Positions 25,730 through 64,000 are shown, counted from the first letter of the stretch. The stretch: 64,000 bases of DNA from a virus (IMGVR_UViG_3300047494_000107:46534-110533); one strand, 5' to 3'. The notes: generated by a model not told the origin, from the letters alone. Made by a program: numbers and translations.

Positions 25730-25916
25730 AATCCTTTCAACTCGTACTCCGCCTATTGAGCTTTTTGACCGCCTAGAGGTGCAAAAAGTTGAAAGGATTG
25801 GCGTATATACGCGGCTGTCGTCGCATTACAAAACCGCTGCACTACCGCTGTGCTAACCCGGCGGACTGTTGTTTTCGATATATTTTATGGCGGCTCTAAC
25901 CGCTAATTTCAACTCG
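25730..25916. promoter_or_regulatory. attP region with candidate integrase arm-type sites
   Basis: 13-bp inverted repeat AATCCTTTCAACT (25730-25742) / AGTTGAAAGGATT (25787-25799); TTTCAACTCG at 25735 and 25907, on either side of the core; palindrome GCGTATATACGC at 25801-25812. Confidence 0.7.
25826..25862 (-). other. attP core: 5' half of tRNA-Thr(UGU), 37 nt
   Basis: GCCGGGT-TA-GCAC-AGCGGTA-GTGC-A-GCGGT-TTTGTAA gives acceptor 5' strand, D arm and anticodon loop (TGT); tRNA similarity then stops; 46 bp from integrase stop. Confidence 0.85.
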
Positions 25917-27006
25917 CTTTCTGGGCCACTTTCGACTCATGCCGCTTGCCCGACCTCAGTTTACGCATCGCACCCTCAGCAAACGTCCGGTCAGGTCTGA
26001 CGTATACCGACAGCACATTTCGGCTTTTGTGGCCGGTTATCGCCCTGATTTGGTCCTCCGAACACCCTGCAGCCCCGAGCGCCGTGGCCAGAGTGCGCCG
26101 CAAATCACGAAACTGCAGATCGTCCGGCAGCCCTGCCAGCGCTCTTAGGCCGGCAAATCGGTGTTGAAAGTCACTTTCAGCGTAGGGTCGCCCCGTGGCC
26201 TCGGAGACGACGATAGGGCCATTTTCGACTCGCGGGGTTGTCTCCAGCAGCCGGCGGAGTTCAGGGAGCGCCGGCACCCAGACTGCGGCGCCCGTCTTCT
26301 CCTGGCGCAGCAAGACAGCCTTCCCGTCATACGCCGCCCAGGACAGCTTGCGGAGGTCGGCCGGGCGTTGGCCCAGGCACCAGCCCAGCATCACGGCCAA
26401 GGCCATGCTTGGGCGGCCAGCTTCAACGGCCTTGGCGCAGAAAACGTCGCGCTCATTGATCGTCCAGACCCGTGAGCGACTATCCGGCACGGACACCATC
26501 ATCTTGAGCGCCGGGTTCTTGTCAATCCAACCCTCGTCGACCCCAAAACTCAACAGGCGGCGCAGAGCGGCAATCGCGTTACGGGCGGCGGATTCACCGC
26601 GATCGGCTTTCAGACCCCGGTACCAGTTCTTAACCATTTTACGCTCAAGCAGGGCTACAGAAGATTCACCCGCAGCGTCTAGCGCCGGCTTGATGTTGTA
26701 GAGGTAGTCGCGCTGAGTTCGCGGAGCCATGTCGACCATGAACTCCTCGTCGGCCTGGAACAGGTCGTGAAGAGCCAGTAGGCTATCCGACCGGTAAGAT
26801 GGACCTGTCTTGGGTTCTTGCTTACGGCGCCACTGATCCAATTCCGCGTTCAGGCGCTCAGCTGCGACGATGGCCTGTATGCGGTCGTCGGGGAGACGAC
26901 GAGGGATGAACCCGGCGGCGAGGAGTTTTGGAGTCGGTTGCCAATACCAGAGCGTACGGCCTTTAAGGGGCCGCTTTACCAGATACCGGACGCCGATGTC
27001 CCGCAC
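25909..27006 (-). CDS. int: Tyrosine integrase
   Basis: GQRPADL (R), QEKTG (K), FRDLRRT, ITGH, SVY catalytic residues. Confidence 0.95.
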   Translation of the reverse strand: MRDIGVRYLVKRPLKGRTLWYWQPTPKLLAAGFIPRRLPDDRIQAIVAAERLNAELDQWRRKQEPKTGPSYRSDSLLALHDLFQADEEFMVDMAPRTQRDYLYNIKPALDAAGESSVALLERKMVKNWYRGLKADRGESAARNAIAALRRLLSFGVDEGWIDKNPALKMMVSVPDSRSRVWTINERDVFCAKAVEAGRPSMALAVMLGWCLGQRPADLRKLSWAAYDGKAVLLRQEKTGAAVWVPALPELRRLLETTPRVENGPIVVSEATGRPYAESDFQHRFAGLRALAGLPDDLQFRDLRRTLATALGAAGCSEDQIRAITGHKSRNVLSVYVRPDRTFAEGAMRKLRSGKRHESKVAQKAS

Positions 27007-46491: not shown

Positions 46492-47429
46492 CAGACGTCC
46501 TCCTTCGGGCGCCCGTTTTCATCCAACGTGTACCAAACATAAGGTTTGATACCGTCTCTCCCCACGATTCCGGCCCACGCGTGGGTGATGTTCCAGTCGT
46601 CGTCTCGTCGCGCTAAAAACAAAGCGTTTCCTGTAACGCCCATGACGCGACCGTACTTGCCGGATGACATTGCGGCGGACCGGTCGCCCGTGGAGGAGGC
46701 GGCGGACTGATCGCCCGTGGAGGAGGCGGCGGACTGGTAGCCCGTGGAGGAGGCGGCGGACTGGTAGCCCGTGGAGGAGGCGGCGGACTGGTCGCCCGTG
46801 GAGGAGGCGGCGGACTGGTCGCCCGTGGAGGAGGCGGCGGACTGGTAGCCCGTGGAGGAGGCGGCGGACTGGTCGCCCGTGGAGGAGGCGGCGGACTGGT
46901 AGCCCGTGGAGGAGGCGGCGGACTGGTAGCCCGTGGAGGAGGCGGCGGACCGGTCGCCCGTGGAGGAGGCGGCGGACTGGTAGCCCGTGGAGGAGGCGGC
47001 GGACCGGTCGCCCGTGGAGGAGGCGGCGGACTGGTAGCCCTCGACGTGCTTGCTCCCCGTAGCCGTTGCTCGCGCGATCACCCATTCGATGGCGCGCTTG
47101 ACAAGATCGGGAATCTTGATCTCAGCGTCGATGGTGATGCGCGCGCTGGCGATCTTCGCGTCATCGGCGCTCTCACGTGATGTTTCGCCGGACTGCCGAA
47201 CATCCGCGTAACGAGAGGCGCCGGGCGCATAGTAGCTGAACACGCTGAGCGGATGATGGTCGACGCTGCACGCGTGAAAACCAGACTGGCAGGCGATGAC
47301 AGGTCCGACATGCTCGTAGGTCTTGCCGACCTCGAACTGATAGCCACGACATTTCCAGTCGAGGTCAAAGCCTTTAATTGACGCGATCTCTTCATCTGTA
47401 TCCGACGGTGTTGCGTTCTCGCTGTCCAT
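46491..47429 (-). CDS. Phage nonapeptide-repeat protein (KGFD...CRGYQFEVG...CQSGFHAC family)
   Basis: Characteristic N-domain; 14 G(Y/D)(Q/R)SAASST-type units; C-terminal GRDGIKPYVWYTL. Confidence 0.85.
   Translation of the reverse strand: MDSENATPSDTDEEIASIKGFDLDWKCRGYQFEVGKTYEHVGPVIACQSGFHACSVDHHPLSVFSYYAPGASRYADVRQSGETSRESADDAKIASARITIDAEIKIPDLVKRAIEWVIARATATGSKHVEGYQSAASSTGDRSAASSTGYQSAASSTGDRSAASSTGYQSAASSTGYQSAASSTGDQSAASSTGYQSAASSTGDQSAASSTGDQSAASSTGYQSAASSTGYQSAASSTGDQSAASSTGDRSAAMSSGKYGRVMGVTGNALFLARRDDDWNITHAWAGIVGRDGIKPYVWYTLDENGRPKEDV
46672..47040. repeat. 27-bp tandem repeat, 13 full units plus 1 partial
   Basis: Invariant CCCGTGGAGGAGGCGGCGGAC core with variable first codons. 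Confidence 0.95.
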
Positions 47430-57787: not shown

Positions 57788-57798
57788 GGGGTGGGAGG

Positions 57799-57828
57799 GG
57801 TTTTCGGAAACTCGGGTTTCTGAAAACC
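57799..57828. terminator. Hairpin between convergent genes
   Basis: GGTTTTCGGAAAC-tcgg-GTTTCTGAAAACC, one mismatch. Confidence 0.6.
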
Positions 57829-57841
57829 GAAAAGGTTTTCC

Positions 57842-58531
57842 CTATATGTTCTCGTTTTTGAGACTCGTTTCAAGTATGTAAGCGTTGTTCTTTCTACGTT
57901 CTCTGCGCTCAGCGCCAAGGTCAGAACGGCTGGGTCCTACGCGGTAGATACCCCGTATGATCTCAATGCCTTTTGCCTTTTTCCGCGTGTAGTTATCGCA
58001 TTTCGGCATGATTGAGGCGGACCAGCTCAGTACGAATTTGAACGATGGGTCGTCTTGCAGGGCGGCGAATATCTTGGTCCAGATACCCTTGTGGCTCCAA
58101 TGGCGTATCGTCGATCGGAAGTTGGTCATTTGCCAGTCGTCGACGGTCAGGCCGTTCTGGGCGGCCGACAGCACGGCTTCGACGCATGACCTGGCGTTCT
58201 CGACCGACTGGACGCCCTCGACGAATAGCGTGGATCGCACACGGCGCCACTGCGTTTCGGTCAGGGCCACCCCTTCGAGCGTCTCGGCGTAGAGCGGCCT
58301 GGGTTTGCGCGCGGCGGGGTCGACCAGGTAGGATGAGAGCCATTCGTCGAGGTCTTCGAGCCGGTAGCGGATGACGGTCTCGAATCCCTTCTTGGTTTCG
58401 ATGTCCATTTCCGCGAACGGCGGCCCGGAACCTTGCTCGCGCCAGTAGCGCAGCAACGCAGGACGAATGCCGAGGTACGCAGCCGCGAGGGATTGGTCTA
58501 TCCATCGGGATTGTGTAGATATGTCAGTCAT
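57842..58531 (-). CDS. MerR/Xis-type HTH fused to an IS5 transposase-like N-terminal fragment
   Basis: AAAYLGI...LRYWR..GSGPPF...IRYRLEDLDEWL; LTETQW...R..VEAVL...RHWSHKGIWTKIFAALQDDP. Confidence 0.65.
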   Translation of the reverse strand: MTDISTQSRWIDQSLAAAYLGIRPALLRYWREQGSGPPFAEMDIETKKGFETVIRYRLEDLDEWLSSYLVDPAARKPRPLYAETLEGVALTETQWRRVRSTLFVEGVQSVENARSCVEAVLSAAQNGLTVDDWQMTNFRSTIRHWSHKGIWTKIFAALQDDPSFKFVLSWSASIMPKCDNYTRKKAKGIEIIRGIYRVGPSRSDLGAERRERRKNNAYILETSLKNENI

Positions 58532-59123
58532 GCAGCCTCCTGTGCCTCCGTTGTCGCCTGAATACTTGGCCGAGAGCGCGCCTCAGCCGTCTAGCATGGT
58601 CGAGAAACTGCTCGCGAAGGGTCGGCGGCGACACAAGCCTGTGCCGCTTGAGCCGCCGGTACCACCCATGGTGTCGACGTCGACCGATGTCGCGCTCAAG
58701 GCGAACGCCGAGCACAGCCAAGCGCTGAGGCATTTGCGGGTGTTGCTGCGCCGCGGCGGCGTGAACTTGGCCGAGTTCCAGGCTCGGCTGTACGAGACCG
58801 AGGCGGTCGATCAACTGGCGAGGTTCATGCGCGACGAACGGCTGGAACCGGAGTTCAGGCGACGCTGTATCAAGGACATCCTTGATCGGGCGCGCGGCAC
58901 CCCGATGGGCGTCGCACGTGTTGAGGTGCCTGACTTGGCGGCGTCCCTCGCCGAGGATGTGCTGTTCCGCGAGGTGCAAGAGGGGGCGGAGTCGGCGCTG
59001 GCCATGCAAGAGATGCAGACATGGCTGGCCAAACCTTTGGCGCAGTGGCCAGCGCACATCCGGGCGAAGTATGAAGCCGAAGCGTCATTGTTGACGTCGA
59101 TTGAGGAGATCACGCCTGGCTAG
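58521..59123 (+). CDS. Terminase small subunit-like protein (start uncertain)
   Basis: EAVDQLARFMRD...RRRCIKDILDRARGTP pattern. Confidence 0.45.
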   Translation: MSVMQPPVPPLSPEYLAESAPQPSSMVEKLLAKGRRRHKPVPLEPPVPPMVSTSTDVALKANAEHSQALRHLRVLLRRGGVNLAEFQARLYETEAVDQLARFMRDERLEPEFRRRCIKDILDRARGTPMGVARVEVPDLAASLAEDVLFREVQEGAESALAMQEMQTWLAKPLAQWPAHIRAKYEAEASLLTSIEEITPG

Positions 59124-59299
59124 CGGATGATGTCGGACGGTTTGGTGACCTCGAACGCCTCCCACTTGCCGTCATCATCCTCTCGTGCCTCTTTCAGCAT
59201 GCGAGCGATCGCGTGTTGCGGACTGATAGCGTTCCAGGCTCCGCGCAATTGGTGCGGTACGTTGTCGCTGTCATAGTGGACGATGTAATACCGCGGCAT
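59120..59299 (-). CDS. 59-aa hypothetical protein (absent from the ORF track)
   Basis: Hand translation MPRYYIVHYDSD...; ATG at the end of repeat D1 with AAGGAG RBS. Confidence 0.6.
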   Translation of the reverse strand: MPRYYIVHYDSDNVPHQLRGAWNAISPQHAIARMLKEAREDDDGKWEAFEVTKPSDIIR

Positions 59300-59360
59300 G
59301 GGCTGGGTCTCCTTTTGGGTTTTAACGCATTTCAGATTCGAGAAAGTTTTGCTCTAACTG
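59297..59360 (-). repeat. Leader repeat D1
   Basis: Near-identical to 59593-59656; ends at an ATG. Confidence 0.85.
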
Positions 59361-59370
59361 ATCCAACGGG

Positions 59371-59595
59371 TTAGTCGGTGATGTCGGGCGGCTTGCGTTG
59401 AACCATTCGAACAACCGGCAACGTCTGACCGTCGCCGACATCAAGTTTGCCGTCCACGATGGGCAACCGGTCGTAGAGGTCGGCATGGATCATGAGCAGG
59501 CCGAAACACTGCGCGGCCTGTTCGACCAAGCGGCGCGTATCCAGTTCGAGCACGTTCGGGGGTACCAAATACTCCCCGTCATCAGAGATAGGCAT
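59371..59595 (-). CDS. Hypothetical protein
   Basis: ATG at the end of repeat D2. Confidence 0.6.
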   Translation of the reverse strand: MPISDDGEYLVPPNVLELDTRRLVEQAAQCFGLLMIHADLYDRLPIVDGKLDVGDGQTLPVVRMVQRKPPDITD

Positions 59596-59656
59596 GGGGT
59601 GGGTCTCCTTCTGGATTTTCACGCATTTCAGATTCGAGAAAGTTTTCGCCTAACTG
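59593..59656 (-). repeat. Leader repeat D2
   Basis: CAGTTAG..AAAACTTTCTCGAATCTGAAATGCGT..AAGGAGACCCA.CCCATG. Confidence 0.85.
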
Positions 59657-59948
59657 GTATTTTTCGACGCTTCGCTCGCGCCTCCTTTAGCCGTGCTTCC
59701 GGGGTGAGAGGCTGACGTATCCCCATCTCGGCGTCGTCGGGCGGCGATCCTTCGATGAACCAAGCGAGCAACAGGATAGCGTCAGGGTGCATGCAGATCC
59801 CGGCGGTCTCCCATCGTTCAAGCGTACGGTGAGGCACGCGCAACGCATTGGCTGCGGCGACCTGGGTGTAGCCCATGCGCGTGCGCCACTGGAACAACTC
59901 ATGGCCGATGTAACGGGCGGTATGGAGCCGCAGGACGGTGTTAGGCAT
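59628..59948 (-). CDS. XRE-family HTH protein
   Basis: WRTRMGYTQVAAANALRVPHRTLERWETAG. Confidence 0.85.
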   Translation of the reverse strand: MPNTVLRLHTARYIGHELFQWRTRMGYTQVAAANALRVPHRTLERWETAGICMHPDAILLLAWFIEGSPPDDAEMGIRQPLTPEARLKEARAKRRKIPVRRKLSRI

Positions 59949-60234
59949 CTATGACTGGCGCGGTGAAGGCCGACCCGTTCTGCTGAGCCGCACGGATGGC
60001 CGGCAGCAGCTGGTCGGCGTAGTAGTCGCCACGCCAGCACTGCGTCATGTCGTCAGGTGTCAGGACGGCGTAGTGGTCACCTATCTGTGTCTCGCCAGAC
60101 TCGTCCTCGCGTGTCCACACGGTCGCGATGAATCGCTGACCTTTGTATTTCGTGTCGGTGAACTCGACGGTGAAGAAGCCGATACCGCCCACACCGTTGC
60201 GGTGATAGCGGACGCGCTGAACCTTGATCGCCAT
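59941..60234 (-). CDS. Phage hypothetical protein with YHRNGVGG motif
   Basis: ATG at the end of repeat C1; C-terminal WRGDYY. Confidence 0.65.
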   Translation of the reverse strand: MAIKVQRVRYHRNGVGGIGFFTVEFTDTKYKGQRFIATVWTREDESGETQIGDHYAVLTPDDMTQCWRGDYYADQLLPAIRAAQQNGSAFTAPVIDA

Positions 60235-60288
60235 AGGGCTGGGTGTCCTTTCGGGATTCTGGGCGACGTGAAAACGAGAAAGGTTGCG
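60232..60288 (-). repeat. Leader repeat C1
   Basis: CGCAACCTTTCTCGTTTTCACGTCGCCCAGAATCCCGAAAGGACACCCAGCCCTATG. Confidence 0.88.
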
Positions 60289-60289
60289 C

Positions 60290-60834
60290 CTAGTTGTCGA
60301 ACAGTCCCACGTGCGTGATGGTGCAGCCCGGCTCGGCGTTCTCGCATTGCTCGCGAGCGTGTTCTTCGTCGTCAGCCTCAAACCGGTAGACCTGGGGTTC
60401 TTCTGTCTCAGGCCAGCCGATCGGGCGATACTCAACTAGATACGTGTTCATGGGTTTGGCCGCAGGAACGGTCGTACCGTCCGCGAATACGGTCTCAATA
60501 CGCCCGTCGCGCCAGTGCTTCACGTGGGCATGCCCGAGGCGTTTGGCGGCCCGTAGAGCGGCCTTCTTTGCACCCCCGAGCGTTGAATGCCACTTGCCTA
60601 TAGGCTGACGGCGCATGGGGTTTGTCACGCAATATATGGTCACGGCGTCACCTCGCGGAACAGGTCAGGCCGCTTGGCGGCTTCGGCGCGCAAGGCTCGC
60701 ACGATGGCGTGGCCCACTCGCATGGATGGCACACGGATGTCGTCGCATCCGTCAAAGCCGCCTGCTTTGACCACGTAGCCTTGAGGCTTGATGCCGGTCA
60801 GATAGACGCGATGATCGATGTCGTCGGGATGCAT
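60290..60834 (-). other. Two small hypothetical genes (60290-60643, 60640-60834)
   Basis: Coupled ORFs following repeat C2. Confidence 0.55.
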
Positions 60835-60887
60835 GGGCTGGGTATCCTTCCGGGATTCTGGGTGACGTGAAAACGAGAAAGGTTGCG
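60832..60887 (-). repeat. Leader repeat C2
   Basis: Near-identical to C1; ends at an ATG. Confidence 0.88.
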
Positions 60888-60888
60888 A

Positions 60889-62136
60889 TTAGCGACGGTA
60901 ATATCTCAGCCCATCGTACGGTGACACGAACCAGCGCTTGGCGAACCGTGTTCCGGGCCAGCACACATCCTCGACCGCAAACGTGGCGTAATGTGTCGCG
61001 CCTTCGCCGAACTTGATTTCCCACGGTGTCGGCTCGCGGTGGTAGGTAATCTCGGTCACGTCGTCGCGAACGGGCAGCCTGCCAGTGAAGTCGGGGAGCT
61101 TGCTCACGGCGTCGCCTCCGCCCGGATGTCGGCCGGGTTCGGATGCCACGTGCGCGGCTCCCCGAGCGGCGATGTCCCGCACAACACGATGAGACCGAGT
61201 GGGCGATAGTCAGCCTCGACTACCCAGCCGCTACCGTTGACGCCGGCCACTTCGATGACCTTGCGGTCAAGGTCACCCCACAGCGCGTGAGAGGCGATAA
61301 TGACCCGTGTCCCGGCGGCCAAGGGTGGCAGCTCGTTCACGGGTTTGGTGTTCCAGAGTAGGGGTGACGGCGGGCGCGGCATGGCTCAGCGCTCCAGGAC
61401 GGGCGAGAAGGCCGCAGCACGGCGCGACGCGGCGAGCCGGCGGGCAAGGCGGCGGGTCCTCTCGCGTACCTCGCGCGCGTCGACATCGTCACGGTTCGCG
61501 CGGGCGGTGTCGCGATGGCGGGCGGAGCGGGACTGGTAAGACATGACGGAGTCTCCGGTTCAGCTGCGGTCAGTTGATCCGACGGCATGCCAGGCAGGGC
61601 GCGCGTGACGCCCCGTAGGGTATGCGGTCAGAGCGGGTCGGTGTCTGTGTCGAATTCGACTTCTTCGGCGATAGCCTCGCATGGGTTTGACCCGTGCCGG
61701 TCAATCCACAAAATCGTCCCGTGCCGTTTGCAGCCTAGGTCCAGCTCCGGTGTCGTTTCATGCTCCATGACCCCGAGGGCGGCAGCTTTGGCTTTCTCAA
61801 TCGCTTCCGCGTCGGACTCGGCTTGGACCGCGACGCTCTCATAGCCGCGCACCCAGTAGGCAACCTTCACTTCGTATTCAGCCATCACACCGACTCCTCC
61901 GCTAGGACCGCGAACGGTTCATGGTTGCCACCCAGACGCGAGCCGCAGCATTCGCACGGCGACCATGAGAATGATGGCTCGGCATCCTCTCCGCCGCTGT
62001 AAACGAGGTGACGCGCGGCGTCACCCCATACGCGCTTAATGTCGGCTGCCAAGGCCGGCCGGTCCTCCGGGACATCACCGTTGGCAATCCAGGCGATGCA
62101 GTCGGCGCACGCCATGCCTTCATATGTGACAATCAT
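60889..62136 (-). other. Small early-type genes (60889-61107, 61104-61382, 61386-61544, 61628-61885, 61885-62136)
   Basis: Coupled ORFs; motifs EIKFGEGATHY, V.V.AES..EAIEKA, FSWSPCECCGS. Confidence 0.6.
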
Positions 62137-62555
62137 CACACCGACTCCGTCTCGAATAGCAGCGTGGCGTATGCATGCGCCGAACCGAGGAACGCGCGGA
62201 GTTTCTTTGCTTGGCGTTGACACACTTTGAACGTGTGCTCTGCCTGCCTGCTATCGGTGTCGTAGCCGTATTCGGCACACCACTCGGCAAAGTCACCGTT
62301 AGCGTTGCCTACACCGTTGGCGTCAAGCGCGAGCGTGTCAAGCACGCTTTCCACGGCCGGCGGCTTTCCGTCGTGCCCACGCCCCATTGAGTACACCAAG
62401 GTCATGCGTGACCGGCCCCGACGTAGAATACAACGCCAATGGTCCATATTGTCCGAGTCGGGCATGTTCGGGTTGGAGTCAGTCCATTCGGCGGTCATGG
62501 TGATACCCATGTAGCCGACGAATTGCGCGATTGTTTGACGGGTGTCAGTGGGCAT
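62136..62555 (-). CDS. Phage early-region hypothetical protein
   Basis: YSMGRGH...VLDTL..DA...FAEWCAEYGYDTDSR; ATG at the end of repeat B1. Confidence 0.7.
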   Translation of the reverse strand: MPTDTRQTIAQFVGYMGITMTAEWTDSNPNMPDSDNMDHWRCILRRGRSRMTLVYSMGRGHDGKPPAVESVLDTLALDANGVGNANGDFAEWCAEYGYDTDSRQAEHTFKVCQRQAKKLRAFLGSAHAYATLLFETESV

Positions 62556-62601
62556 GGCTTGTCTCGTTTCCAGAGGTTTGAATGGGCGGCGAGGTGTCAG
62601 G
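62553..62601 (-). repeat. Leader repeat B1 (49 bp)
   Basis: Differs from 63672-63720 at 2 positions. Confidence 0.9.
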
Positions 62602-62767
62602 CTTTGTCGGCTGCCGCGCGGGCTTTCTCCCGCCGCCGATCGGCCAGATCCAGTCGGATATGCCGAACGTCGCTGCTGATCGCCTGAACCACTGTCAGAC
62701 CGACCATTCCGAAAAACAGAATGCCGACGCCGCCGAGAACAAAGGCGGCGTAAATCTCGATGAACAT
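62597..62767 (-). CDS. 56-aa membrane protein
   Basis: ATG at the end of A1; N-terminal transmembrane helix. Confidence 0.65.
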   Translation of the reverse strand: MFIEIYAAFVLGGVGILFFGMVGLTVVQAISSDVRHIRLDLADRRREKARAAADKA

Positions 62768-62894
62768 GTTCGTAATCTCCATTGGGGTTGTCCGTCTCAG
62801 TGAGCAAAGATTACCGTGACTAACGGTGTAGCGCAAGCCTTATTTTGGGCTTTGAGCGGAAAAATCCGTATCAAGACCATCGGATGCGGCGGCG
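62765..62894 (-). repeat. Promoter-RBS repeat A1 (130 bp)
   Basis: Matches 63871-64000; minus strand TTGCGC-17-TAATCT, GGAG RBS, ATG. Confidence 0.95.
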
Positions 62895-63041
62895 CGGGCT
62901 TGCTCTAGGCTTGTCGATTCCAGGACCATCTGTAGCGCGCGCCGCATCCGGTTGAATTGTTCGCGGCGCTTAGCCTGGCGGCGAGCCTGCGTGGTGTCAT
63001 AGGAGCGGCGCGGTTTGGTGGGGGGTATGTCGACCATCCTA

Positions 63042-63302
63042 TCAGGCGCGCAGAGCGCGCGCCCATTCGGTGGCCGGCAGGGTGGCGGTGTCGACGATTT
63101 TGCAGCCCGTCATTTCAAAGTCGAAGCGGGCGGCGCTTGCGGCGCGGCTGACGGCCAGCGCCGCGTCATAGGCGGCTTGTGCGCCGGCCGGGCGACGCTT
63201 GCGGTCGAGGACCCGTTGCGCATCGCGGAGGGCGGCAGCAGCCTTGTTAGCAGCGATTTCGAGGCGGAGATATTCAGCGTGCCATTCCGGGTTGTGAGCC
63301 AT
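63042..63302 (-). CDS. 86-aa Ala-rich hypothetical protein
   Basis: ATG at the end of A2. Confidence 0.65.
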   Translation of the reverse strand: MAHNPEWHAEYLRLEIAANKAAAALRDAQRVLDRKRRPAGAQAAYDAALAVSRAASAARFDFEMTGCKIVDTATLPATEWARALRA

Positions 63303-63429
63303 GTTCGTAATCTCCGTTGGGGTTGTCCGTCTCAGTGAGCAAAGACTACCGTTACTAACGGGGTAGCGCAAGCCTTATTTTGGGCTTTGAGCGGAAAAAT
63401 CCGTATCAAGACCATCGGATGCGGCGGCG
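63300..63429 (-). repeat. Promoter-RBS repeat A2 (130 bp)
   Basis: About four substitutions relative to A1/A3; -10 reads TAGTCT. Confidence 0.95.
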
Positions 63430-63434
63430 ACGTG

Positions 63435-63674
63435 TCAGGCGGTCGCTTTGGAGAAGGCTTGCTGCACGGTGTTCTCGCATTGCGCCGCGGTGCAGCCGTT
63501 CGTCAGATCGGCGAGGAACAGCTTGTGCGCATGCTCAATTGCGTGATGCACCTCGAAGCTTTTTGCCTTCTTAGGCTGCCGGCTGATGACAAAGGCTTCA
63601 GCACGTTTCCATGCGTCCGTGTAAAGTGCCTTTTCAGCGGGTGACATCAGACTAAACAGGTCTTTAGCTGTCAT
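63435..63674 (-). CDS. 79-aa hypothetical protein
   Basis: ATG at the end of B2. Confidence 0.65.
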   Translation of the reverse strand: MTAKDLFSLMSPAEKALYTDAWKRAEAFVISRQPKKAKSFEVHHAIEHAHKLFLADLTNGCTAAQCENTVQQAFSKATA

Positions 63675-63720
63675 GGCTTGTCTCGTTTCCAGGGGTTTGA
63701 AGGGGCGGCGAGGTGTCAGG
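63672..63720 (-). repeat. Leader repeat B2 (49 bp)
   Basis: CCTGACACCTCGCCGCCCCTTCAAACCCCTGGAAACGAGACAAGCCATG. Confidence 0.9.
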
Positions 63721-63873
63721 TTAGACCGGTTCGCAAGACACAACGTAGCAGTCAGCGTCGTGTAACTCGGGGCCGACCGACTTAATCGCATCGTCCCGGT
63801 TCAAGGCTTGAATATCTTTCCGGATACGCGCGCTCGTAAACATATGCTGGGCGATTATGCGGAAAGTTATCAT
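63721..63873 (-). CDS. 50-aa hypothetical protein
   Basis: ATG at the end of A3; stop abuts B2. Confidence 0.6.
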   Translation of the reverse strand: MITFRIIAQHMFTSARIRKDIQALNRDDAIKSVGPELHDADCYVVSCEPV

Positions 63874-64000
63874 GTTCGTAATCTCCATTGGGGTTGTCCG
63901 TCTCAGTGAGCAAAGATTACCGTGACTAACGGTGTAGCGCAAGCCTTATTTTGGGCTTTGAGCGGAAAAATCCGTATCAAGACCATCGGATGCGGCGGCG
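63871..64000 (-). repeat. Promoter-RBS repeat A3 (runs to the window edge)
   Basis: Matches A1. Confidence 0.95.

Follow-up and report, generated by a model that had tools for sequence, protein, structure and literature searches.

In this work we describe an array of about 20 small genes, all on one strand (-), in which short translationally coupled groups are separated by reused families of spacers, carried by an uncultured phage represented by a 110,533-bp contig (GC 0.60 genome-wide). Four families of repeats (A, 130 nt; B, 49 nt; C and D, about 60 nt each) stand upstream of these genes, and the same design recurs, with different modules, in unrelated phages that share one cargo homologue. 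On balance, and with a little more than even confidence, we favour the interpretation that this is a PeSL-type array in the accessory arm of a novel phage, whose expression modules have been recycled through homologous recombination at the modules themselves.

The window, by which we mean the whole 64,000-nt stretch that was analysed, ends inside the array at position 64,000. The 127-bp 'direct terminal repeat' of the contig proved to be a copy of module A (63874-64000), the terminal overlap being exactly 127 bp, and the array thus crosses the contig junction. When it was followed past the window, as a preliminary description of this DNA had advised, it continued through genome positions 1 to about 925, with a third copy of B (genome 387-433) and two further genes. 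Within groups, neighbouring genes overlap by 1-8 nt or lie 3-4 nt apart, and genes preceded by a module start 32-137 nt past the previous stop, with the module occupying most or all of the gap. Searches of IMG/VR, JGI metagenomes, GTDB genomes and GenBank phages turned up no relative of the phage. Its family-A polymerase shares no more than 33% identity with the polymerase of any phage in culture, it encodes two tyrosine recombinases, and it shows no DNA similarity to T4-like phages.

All four leader families announced in the preliminary description were recovered at their positions by BLASTN self-comparison (E-values 1e-14 to 1e-61), and all features given below lie on the minus strand, in window coordinates unless marked as genome positions. 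Module A is present in three copies. The copy at the window and contig end (63871..64000) is 100% identical to that at 62765-62894, coincides with genome 1-127 and has its 5' box at genome 137-121. The second (63300..63439 including the box, the module itself being 63300-63429) is 97% identical, carries 4 private substitutions, and has a 17-nt box at 63439-63423 and its ATG at 63302; the third (62765..62894, ATG at 62767) is without the CCTGACAC part of the box. An upstream stop is found at or within the box in two copies, and a putative terminator hairpin at the 5' end is weak. The AT-rich tract CAAAGCCCAAAATAAGG precedes the -35 box, and every copy contains TTGCGC-17-TAATCT (TAGTCT in one copy), which matches the E. 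coli consensus at only 6 of 12 positions; a promoter scan with that consensus did not call these hexamers. All three copies have 5-bp stems in the spacer separating -35 from -10 (62827-62813, 63361-63349 and 63933-63919): the 63300..63439 copy reads TTGCGC-17-TAGTCT with the palindrome CCGTT-AGT-AACGG, followed by GGAG and ATG, and the 62765..62894 copy reads TTGCGC-17-TAATCT with ACCGT-TAGTC-ACGGT. GGAG, 9 nt and ATG close every copy. The -10 form GGTAATCT/TAGTCT also accompanies a TTGACC -35 box at two other intergenic and correctly oriented sites, at genome 836 (upstream of gene g775) and window 55404, and this promoter-like pattern gave 7 hits against 1.1 expected. Module A would form a complete expression unit for the host RNA polymerase, consisting of a stop, an AT-rich tract, -35 and -10 boxes 17 bp apart, a leader of about 40 nt, GGAG and ATG, presumably active early, with a small palindrome abutting the -10 box that could serve as operator or stem-loop. 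Among the large genes of the phage, no phage RNA polymerase was found.

Module B shares its opening with module A. The 17-nt box CCTGACAC(C/G)TCGCCGCC begins both families, its four perfect copies being the 5' ends of two A and two B modules, and partial copies occur at the remaining A and B. In the B copy at 63672..63720 the box is followed by a leader ending GGAAACGAGACAAGCC-ATG (ATG at 63674), and in the copy at 62553..62601, which is 96% identical to it (ATG at 62555), the upstream gene takes its TGA stop from the box. Dyad symmetry is absent from the box, and the box itself is absent from modules C and D. Module C at 60835..60892 leaves no other intergenic sequence between the preceding TAA and the ATG at 60834 (AACCTTTCTCG...AAGGATACCCAGCCC); its second copy (60235..60293, with the repeat at 60236-60293) has one extra base before the ATG at 60234 (...CAGCCC-T-ATG). 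The earlier claim that the leaders end exactly at ATG is one base off for this copy. Module D is found at 59596..59656 (ATG at 59595), where it overlaps the last 11 codons of a helix-turn-helix (HTH) gene, and at 59300..59360 (ATG at 59299). The C copies are 91-94% identical and the D copies 89%, and the 3' block AAGGA(G/T/C)ACCCA(G/C)CCC is conserved across these two otherwise diverged families. A fifth repeat, the 15-nt junction GGAGTCGGTGTGATG, occurs at 62134..62148 and 61883..61897 and comprises an RBS, codons for ...SV, a TGA stop and an overlapping ATG. B, C and D resemble leaders for translation that carry no promoter, but could nonetheless hold promoters of an unrecognised kind; together with the 15-nt junction they would act as intercistronic, promoter-less initiation leaders that give their genes the same ribosome-binding context.

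The boundaries of the modules are sharp. Identity between copies is 0.88-1.00 before the ATG and falls to 0.20-0.33, the chance level, once the initial 60 nt of the genes are compared. Start and stop codons mark abrupt limits to modules that are 89-100% identical, and the intervening genes have nothing in common, which argues that the modules have spread recently relative to the genes, although cassette insertion is indistinguishable, at 2-3 copies per family, from gene conversion acting on spacers already in place. A search of the whole 110-kb genome found no additional copies of A-D outside the array. Some module copies extend into coding sequence: the HTH gene runs 11 codons into D, and an ORF at 63037..62840 would run 18 codons into the boxless A. 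RNA folds of all modules were no better than those of shuffled sequences (z-scores for A, B, C and D from -0.57 to +0.62), and no inverted repeats apart from the 5-bp palindrome were found in them.

The cargo of the array is as varied as its leaders are uniform. The contig-end copy of A leads a 50-aa gene (63721..63873; GC 0.52; no Pfam family), which is followed by a B-led gene of 79 aa (63435..63674), an A-led gene of 86 aa (63042..63302; GC 0.68) and a possible 65-aa gene (62840..63037), an uncertain call whose last 18 codons lie within module A. The remaining A copy leads a 56-aa gene (62597..62767), whose product is probably a small membrane protein given its hydrophobic N-terminal half. 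A 139-aa gene (62136..62555) led by B belongs to phrog_4273, a widespread phage family of unknown function; its AlphaFold model (pLDDT 93) has no match among solved folds, and its homologues, of 131-139 aa, span its full length, which confirms the ATG ending module B as the true start. Downstream are a Cys-rich 83-aa gene (61885..62136; phrog_3034) whose start overlaps the upstream stop, an 85-aa gene (61628..61885), and three coupled genes of 52, 92 and 72 aa (60889..61544), the last of which encodes a phrog_38643 protein also present in Caulobacter and Acidovorax phages. C leads an overlapping pair of 64 and 117 aa (60290..60834) and a pair (59628..60234) comprising a 97-aa protein and a 106-aa XRE-type HTH protein (gene 59948..59628), which scored 24.8 bits against HTH_31, just under the Pfam cut-off of 27. 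Finally, two D-led genes of 74 and 59 aa (59120..59595) have C-termini that resemble each other (...KPPDITD* and ...KPSDIIR*), and their ends are alike over 27 nt at 78% identity (repeat family D7). As had been proposed, the cargo proteins are mutually dissimilar (best E 0.057 in an all-against-all BLASTP of a 20-protein set). Nearly all are orphans, with no Pfam family in 18 of the 19 scanned; cargo GC spans 0.52-0.74 against 0.60 for the genome, and, for the early host-takeover or anti-defence role that the preliminary description suggested the genes may have, PADLOC returned no hits among the 10 cargo proteins scanned.

Homologues of the 139-aa protein provided a view of comparable loci in other phages. 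They were found at 80 viral loci without common neighbours, 16 of which carry dispersed repeats of their own (35-300 bp), and in the three such loci examined the repeats are promoter-bearing spacers between predicted genes. In L035 at least four copies each follow a similar terminator-like hairpin and contain TTGACA-17-TATAAT and GGAGG-ATG; in L051 the repeats contain TTGCAC, a palindromic spacer, TAGAGT and AAGGAG-ATG; and in L028 a TTGACG promoter-like core lies within a C-rich/G-rich stem.

Two known systems offer close comparisons, and both analogies drawn in the preliminary description are supported, the first for module A and the second for the 3' block of C and D. PeSL cassettes of T4-type phages consist of an upstream stop, an AT-rich region, sigma70-like boxes, a stem-loop mostly between -35 and -10, a Shine-Dalgarno sequence and a start codon (PMC2839356). 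They help genes to be swapped, the defining evidence being indels between relatives and mini-circles detected by inverse PCR (Arbiol et al. 2010, PMC2839356; Comeau et al. 2014, PMC4122927). Module A matches this anatomy feature by feature and in the same order, from upstream stop, AT-rich tract and candidate sigma70-type -35 and -10 boxes with a stem-loop between them to Shine-Dalgarno and ATG; it likewise occurs as several near-identical copies around small orphan genes in a non-core region, with boundaries whose sharpness is consistent with recombination between copies. However, the phage is unrelated in sequence and not T4-like (family-A polymerase, two tyrosine recombinases, 60% GC), which weakens a claim of homology with PeSL and leaves the analogy unaffected. 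Module A also differs in having only 3 copies, a 5-bp stem and no polyG/polyC tract, in alternating with the promoter-less B, C and D, and in sharing a 17-nt box with B. The start-associated sequences (SAS) of Cluster K mycobacteriophages, which are thought to be regulatory, carry the 13-nt motif GGGATAGGAGCCC 3-7 bp before the start in 11-19 copies over half the genome, along with a 17-bp inverted-repeat ESAS (Pope et al. 2011, PMC3203893). The C/D block AAGGAnACCCAsCCC and the B leader resemble these in being asymmetric, of one orientation and placed before the ATG of unrelated non-structural genes, sometimes with the upstream stop; a one-orientation motif with a Shine-Dalgarno core near the ATG is present in all four C/D and all three B copies. 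The phage repeats are nevertheless not GGGATAGGAGCCC, measure 49-64 nt rather than 13 nt, number 2-4 rather than 11-19 copies, and lack an ESAS.

The modules might instead constitute a regulon only, in which a single regulator acts on all of them, as a repressor at the A palindrome and as a translational regulator or RNase at the B, C and D leaders, and concerted evolution by gene conversion preserves their identity with no part in gene gain or loss. Such control would suit the palindrome that every A copy places exactly in the -35/-10 spacer, the XRE-type HTH protein encoded within the array, the 3' block kept across the two diverged families C and D, and the regulatory role considered for SAS (PMC3203893). 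We judge it unlikely, however: identity of 100% over 130 nt and 96% over 49 nt takes in positions without plausible function, and so indicates recent common descent regardless of role; gene conversion is itself a form of recombination among the copies; and the boxless A is fused to the upstream ORF in a way that resembles a recombination scar. We consider it very unlikely that the array was produced during assembly, by joining alleles of a mixed phage population at shared repeats or splicing a small circle into the contig. The contig does end inside a 130-nt repeat, 3 nt above the likely k-mer (127), and with two A copies 100% identical, one large circle plus a 1.1-kb circle would give equal k-mer content. 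Yet the sequence flanking each module copy is unique on either side and private substitutions mark the middle A, which means that the joins between gene ends and modules are present in the sequence; B, C and D, with lengths well below k, cannot mislead the assembly graph; and the same design appears in independent assemblies of other phages. Tandem duplication of units of gene and leader, with genes then diverging beyond recognition, might be read from the similar ends of the two D-led genes and from the small size of all genes, which could evolve fast, but seems extremely improbable, as a 100% match gives way to chance similarity within a single codon of the ATG, no mutational process could erase coding sequence and leave the adjoining 130 non-coding nt untouched, and protein lengths and compositions vary widely.

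The array had also been called integron-like, and a likeness is apparent in its one-directional, small, unrelated and mostly promoter-less genes, its recurring separators and the tyrosine recombinase gene at its upstream end. In a strict sense the description does not hold: integrons have an IntI-type integrase divergent from the array, attI, folded attC sites and a single Pc, whereas here several internal promoter units (module A) lie within the array. The only recombinase gene near the array (genome 1818..916), directly upstream of it and on the same strand, encodes a Xer-like enzyme whose best model is XerC (130 bits), and an IntI-type integrase was rejected at 72 bits against the cut-off of 265 for the integron-integrase model TIGR02249 (PRK15417, 36 against 435); attC-like sites were rejected with module fold z-scores of about 0. 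It is highly doubtful, in our estimate, that this enzyme acts on the A/B box, perhaps assisted by XRE-type or HTH_17 proteins, and excises and inserts single-gene cassettes as part of a phage-borne site-specific system. The co-oriented gene immediately upstream, a box common to two otherwise different module families and often carrying the upstream stop, an excisionase-like HTH_17 protein just past the far end of the array and a faint match of the array HTH protein to the Xer-activation-factor family (24 bits, cut-off 70) all speak for it. Against it, the box lacks dyad symmetry and is absent from C and D, the modules show no attC-like fold, a dif-like 11-6-11 site just upstream of the recombinase's own gene is its likelier substrate, and the two phage contigs whose recombinase is 42-43% identical carry no array of this kind. 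If true, it would represent an integron-like system that relies on a Xer-family recombinase and on sites that are not palindromic.

Homologous recombination at the modules, either between co-infecting relatives or through unequal or intramolecular exchange, would remain the most economical route by which the modules of this PeSL-type array spread. Such exchange, the PeSL mechanism demonstrated in T4-type phages, would insert, delete or swap whole genes while keeping their expression. We lean towards viewing the array as the arm that carries the accessory genes of a novel myovirus-type phage of 110 kb, and as an arrangement of an already known kind, that of the PeSL cassettes of T4-type phages.

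The most fitting interpretation of the array at 59120-64000, in which every gene lies on the minus strand, is that reusable promoter and leader modules surround orphan genes, in a manner resembling the promoter-early stem-loop (PeSL) cassettes of T4-type phages. Regional repeat finding and a whole-genome self-BLAST both recovered the four repeat families of the preliminary description, each preceding minus-strand genes: module A (130 nt, 97-100% identical) at 62765-62894, 63300-63429 and 63871-64000; module B (49 nt, 96% identical) at 62553-62601 and 63672-63720; module C (91-94% identical) at 60835-60892 and 60236-60293; and module D (89% identical) at 59596-59656 and 59300-59360. A motif search of the whole 110,533-bp genome found no occurrence of the A-D core motifs elsewhere. 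Coding-strand alignments further showed that ATG terminates all module copies, with a single extra base before the ATG in one C copy, and that copies of a family match pairwise at 0.88-1.00 up to the ATG, compared with 0.20-0.33 over the following 60 nt. Since identity drops from 100% to chance level exactly at the start codons, duplication followed by divergence cannot be the source of this pattern. Hidden paralogy among the cargo, the small genes between modules, was likewise rejected, as no mutual similarity was found among the 20 array-encoded proteins.

Two further candidate copies were discarded. A fifth C/D-like sequence at 57788-57845 (62%) lies in a convergent-terminator region between two genes and its resemblance is due to chance, and a promoter-like region ("A0") before g775, the gene downstream of genome position 836, was excluded from the copy count because it could not be aligned to module A. 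Separately, one A copy is preceded, 48 nt away and within a doubtful 65-aa ORF, by an inverted partial copy of the module A 5' end (62940-62959; 20 nt, 80% complementary), which could allow transcript pairing with the 5' part of module A. The ends of the two D-led genes (59118-59144 and 59369-59395) are also alike over 27 nt (78% identity; ...KPSDIIR* and ...KPPDITD*), while the encoded proteins are otherwise dissimilar; these ends may represent a repeated 3' junction or chance.

The organization of module A comprises, from its 5' end, a 17-nt box (CCTGACACGTCGCCGCC, absent from one of the three copies), a weak hairpin with a T-run behind it, an A-rich stretch, the hexamers TTGCGC and TAATCT (TAGTCT in the variant copy) separated by a 17-nt spacer, and a leader of approximately 40 nt leading to GGAG, 9 nt and the ATG. 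The spacer holds the palindrome ACCGT-TAGTC-ACGGT, or CCGTT-AGT-AACGG in the variant copy. Given that no phage RNA polymerase was seen among the large genes of this genome, promoters for the host polymerase are expected. The module A hexamers are weak relative to the E. coli consensus, and a consensus scan made no call there. At two more intergenic positions, genome 836 and window 55404, the module A -10 element was found in the correct orientation with a better -35, and the count for the -10/-35 pattern is 7, compared with an expectation of 1.1. Module B begins with the same 17-nt box and ends in GGAAACGAGACAAGCC-ATG, while C and D carry the same 5'-terminal (AAC(C)TTTCTCG) and 3'-terminal (AAGGAnACCCAsCCC) sequences and span the entire gap from stop to start. 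No convincing promoter was seen in B, C or D; sigma54 and ECF-type promoters were considered by eye and set aside on account of unsuitable spacings.

The likeness to repeated promoters of T4-like phages that had been proposed for the array was borne out, with module A agreeing point by point with the published description of PeSL cassettes, which consist of an upstream stop, an AT-rich region, sigma70-like boxes, a Shine-Dalgarno sequence and a start codon, with a stem-loop mostly placed between the boxes (PMC2839356); the weak hexamers of module A would be the candidate counterparts of the sigma70-like boxes. In contrast to the PeSL systems, the modules described here reside in a high-GC phage that encodes tyrosine recombinases and falls well outside the T4-like phages, and they form a two-tiered scheme in which putative promoter units alternate with apparently translation-only leaders.

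The window makes up the final 64 kb of the 110,533-bp IMG/VR contig, and the array was found to extend beyond its initial description, continuing past the window across the contig junction. Read across this junction in the direction of transcription, an Xer-like recombinase is followed by a palindrome with 15-bp arms, a promoter-like TTGACC-17-TAGTCT and a gene of 113 aa, and then by B-84 aa, A-50 aa, B-79 aa, A-86 aa (with the doubtful 65-aa ORF), A-56 aa and B-139 aa; two 15-nt junctions introduce genes of 83 and 85 aa, after which come genes of 52, 92 and 72 aa, C-64 and 117 aa, C-97 and 106 aa (an HTH protein), D-74 aa and finally D-59 aa. Within groups, neighboring genes have overlaps of 1-8 nt or gaps of 3-4 nt, whereas module-preceded genes start 32-137 nt past the previous stop, with the module occupying most or all of the gap. 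At the far end, a palindromic CTAG (59120-59123) holds the stops of both the last array gene and a convergent plus-strand ORF (58596-59123; 175 aa, good codon-position GC, no family), and a terminator is absent between the two; past this end lies an HTH_17/excisionase-like protein. Genome self-comparison also revealed, within a coding region at 46672-47040, a 54-bp unit repeated in tandem about 7 times with 94-96% identity.

The "direct terminal repeat" of the contig is exactly 127 bp long and is itself an A copy (window 63874-64000, genome 1-127), and the module is also present twice internally. De Bruijn assemblers run at k=127 leave an overlap of 127 on a closed path; the contig is therefore most likely a circular assembly cut within module A, with no physical terminal repeat, and completeness and end-type calls based on this repeat should be treated with care. 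The same consideration raises the question of whether the array itself could be an assembly artefact. The placement of the 1.1-kb segment between two identical A copies does rest on repeat resolution, but it is the only point of the layout that does so, and with unique flanks at every junction and modules B, C and D being far shorter than k, an artefact is unlikely.

Other explanations for the repeats assign them to guide-directed repression, to structured RNA or to site-specific recombination. TIGR-TasA systems are able to repress transcription (bioRxiv 10.64898/2026.09.09.750476), and TIGR stem-loop units are present in this phage (genome 8446-9502). Guides aimed at the modules were rejected: with spacer boundaries set by the motif rules of that preprint, which may be imperfect, all spacer-pair arrangements gave 0 module matches genome-wide, and the 7 genome-wide matches with one mismatch and 78 with two equaled those of shuffled controls. 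A structured RNA or ribozyme was similarly rejected, with Rfam giving no match in the array (E<=1) or the whole genome (gathering scores) and module folds being no better than shuffles. An integron-like cassette array had been suggested, and a 300-aa Xer-like tyrosine recombinase is encoded directly upstream of the array (L005:916-1818 of the whole contig, minus strand). Integrase model scores, the same folding results and gene orientation contradict a strict integron; the position of this enzyme beside the array and the sharing of the 17-nt box by A and B leave an integron-like role for it a small probability. The recombinase scores 130 bits with the XerC model (below the cut-off), and is accompanied by the 15-bp-arm palindrome downstream (L005:860-905) and, just upstream of its gene, by a dif-like 11-6-11 site (ACGCAAGACAA-TTAGCA-TTATATTGCGT, L005:1849-1876) that is plausibly its own site. 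A second integrase is encoded at window 25909-27006. On the strand of the Xer-like recombinase and upstream of it (L005:2129-5551, minus), genes for an RtcB-type RNA ligase (450 aa), a Fic/DOC-domain protein (174 aa) and a CxxCxxCC protein suggest a context of accessory or counter-defence genes.

Returning to the PeSL-like modules, the phage carries terminase, portal, major head protein, tail sheath, baseplate and tape measure genes together with a family-A polymerase, helicase and exonuclease, and its cargo is nearly all orphan, with a single sub-threshold Pfam match (HTH_31), four PHROGs of unassigned function and no PADLOC match for any of the 10 proteins scanned. The GC content of cargo genes varies between 0.52 and 0.74, compared with 0.60 for the genome, which hints at mixed origins. 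The XRE-type HTH protein of 106 aa (59628-59948, minus strand) gave a faint match to the VC1465 family of Xer recombination activation factors (24 bits, cut-off 70), which may be mere general HTH similarity. The B-led 139-aa protein (62136-62555, minus strand), which the gene call of the collection shortens to 89 aa, is a member of phrog_4273, a family widespread among phages, and homologues of 131-139 aa that align with it over its full length confirm its start. Its confidently predicted fold (pLDDT 93) had no significant Foldseek match and a best VIA-align Z of 4.8, with no convincing match to a solved structure.

Across 80 viral loci (L008-L087), the 139-aa family has no conserved neighbors and thus behaves as a freely moving gene. 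Sixteen of these loci contain dispersed repeats of their own (35-300 bp), and the three examined, L035, L051 and L028, carry sequence-unrelated modules with a promoter-like core between predicted genes, which indicates that the design is recurrent. These comprise at least four copies with TTGACA-17-TATAAT in L035 (7500-10600), modules with a palindromic spacer much like that of module A in L051 (3650-7920), and a promoter-like core within a C-rich/G-rich stem in L028 (5290-7110). A ribosome-binding site and ATG additionally conclude the modules of L035 and L051, and a module copy closely follows the cargo homologue in L028 and L035.

Closer relatives were sought in viral, metagenome and genome contig collections, none of which contains module B or the core of module A. 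Neither the flanking proteins nor the polymerase revealed a close relative (best cultured-phage polymerase match 33% identical), the nearest homologues of those array proteins searched against protein and contig collections are at most 60% identical, and contigs with Xer homologues (42-43% identity) contain no array. L008 has only one gene in common with this phage, and L026-L029 represent one phage, so that cassette variation is not demonstrable from them. The phage is thus a lineage without known relatives in the collections searched.

In the A copy lacking the box, 18 codons of the upstream ORF lie inside the module, an arrangement that resembles a scar left by recombination. Together with the boundary step, the mobile cargo and the recurrent modules, this indirect evidence is favorable to, though not decisive for, recombination-driven exchange. 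From the array we infer the promoter activity of the modules, their early timing, their recombination history and the function of their cargo. Identical leaders mark some 20 co-regulated orphan genes as candidates for host-takeover or counter-defence screens. PeSL cassettes act as reusable expression units into which orphan genes are plugged, dropped or swapped with expression intact; if the modules of this phage mediate exchange, the PeSL strategy would be at work well beyond T4-like phages, and this would strengthen the case that phage mosaicism is shaped by conserved boundary sequences as well as by random illegitimate recombination.
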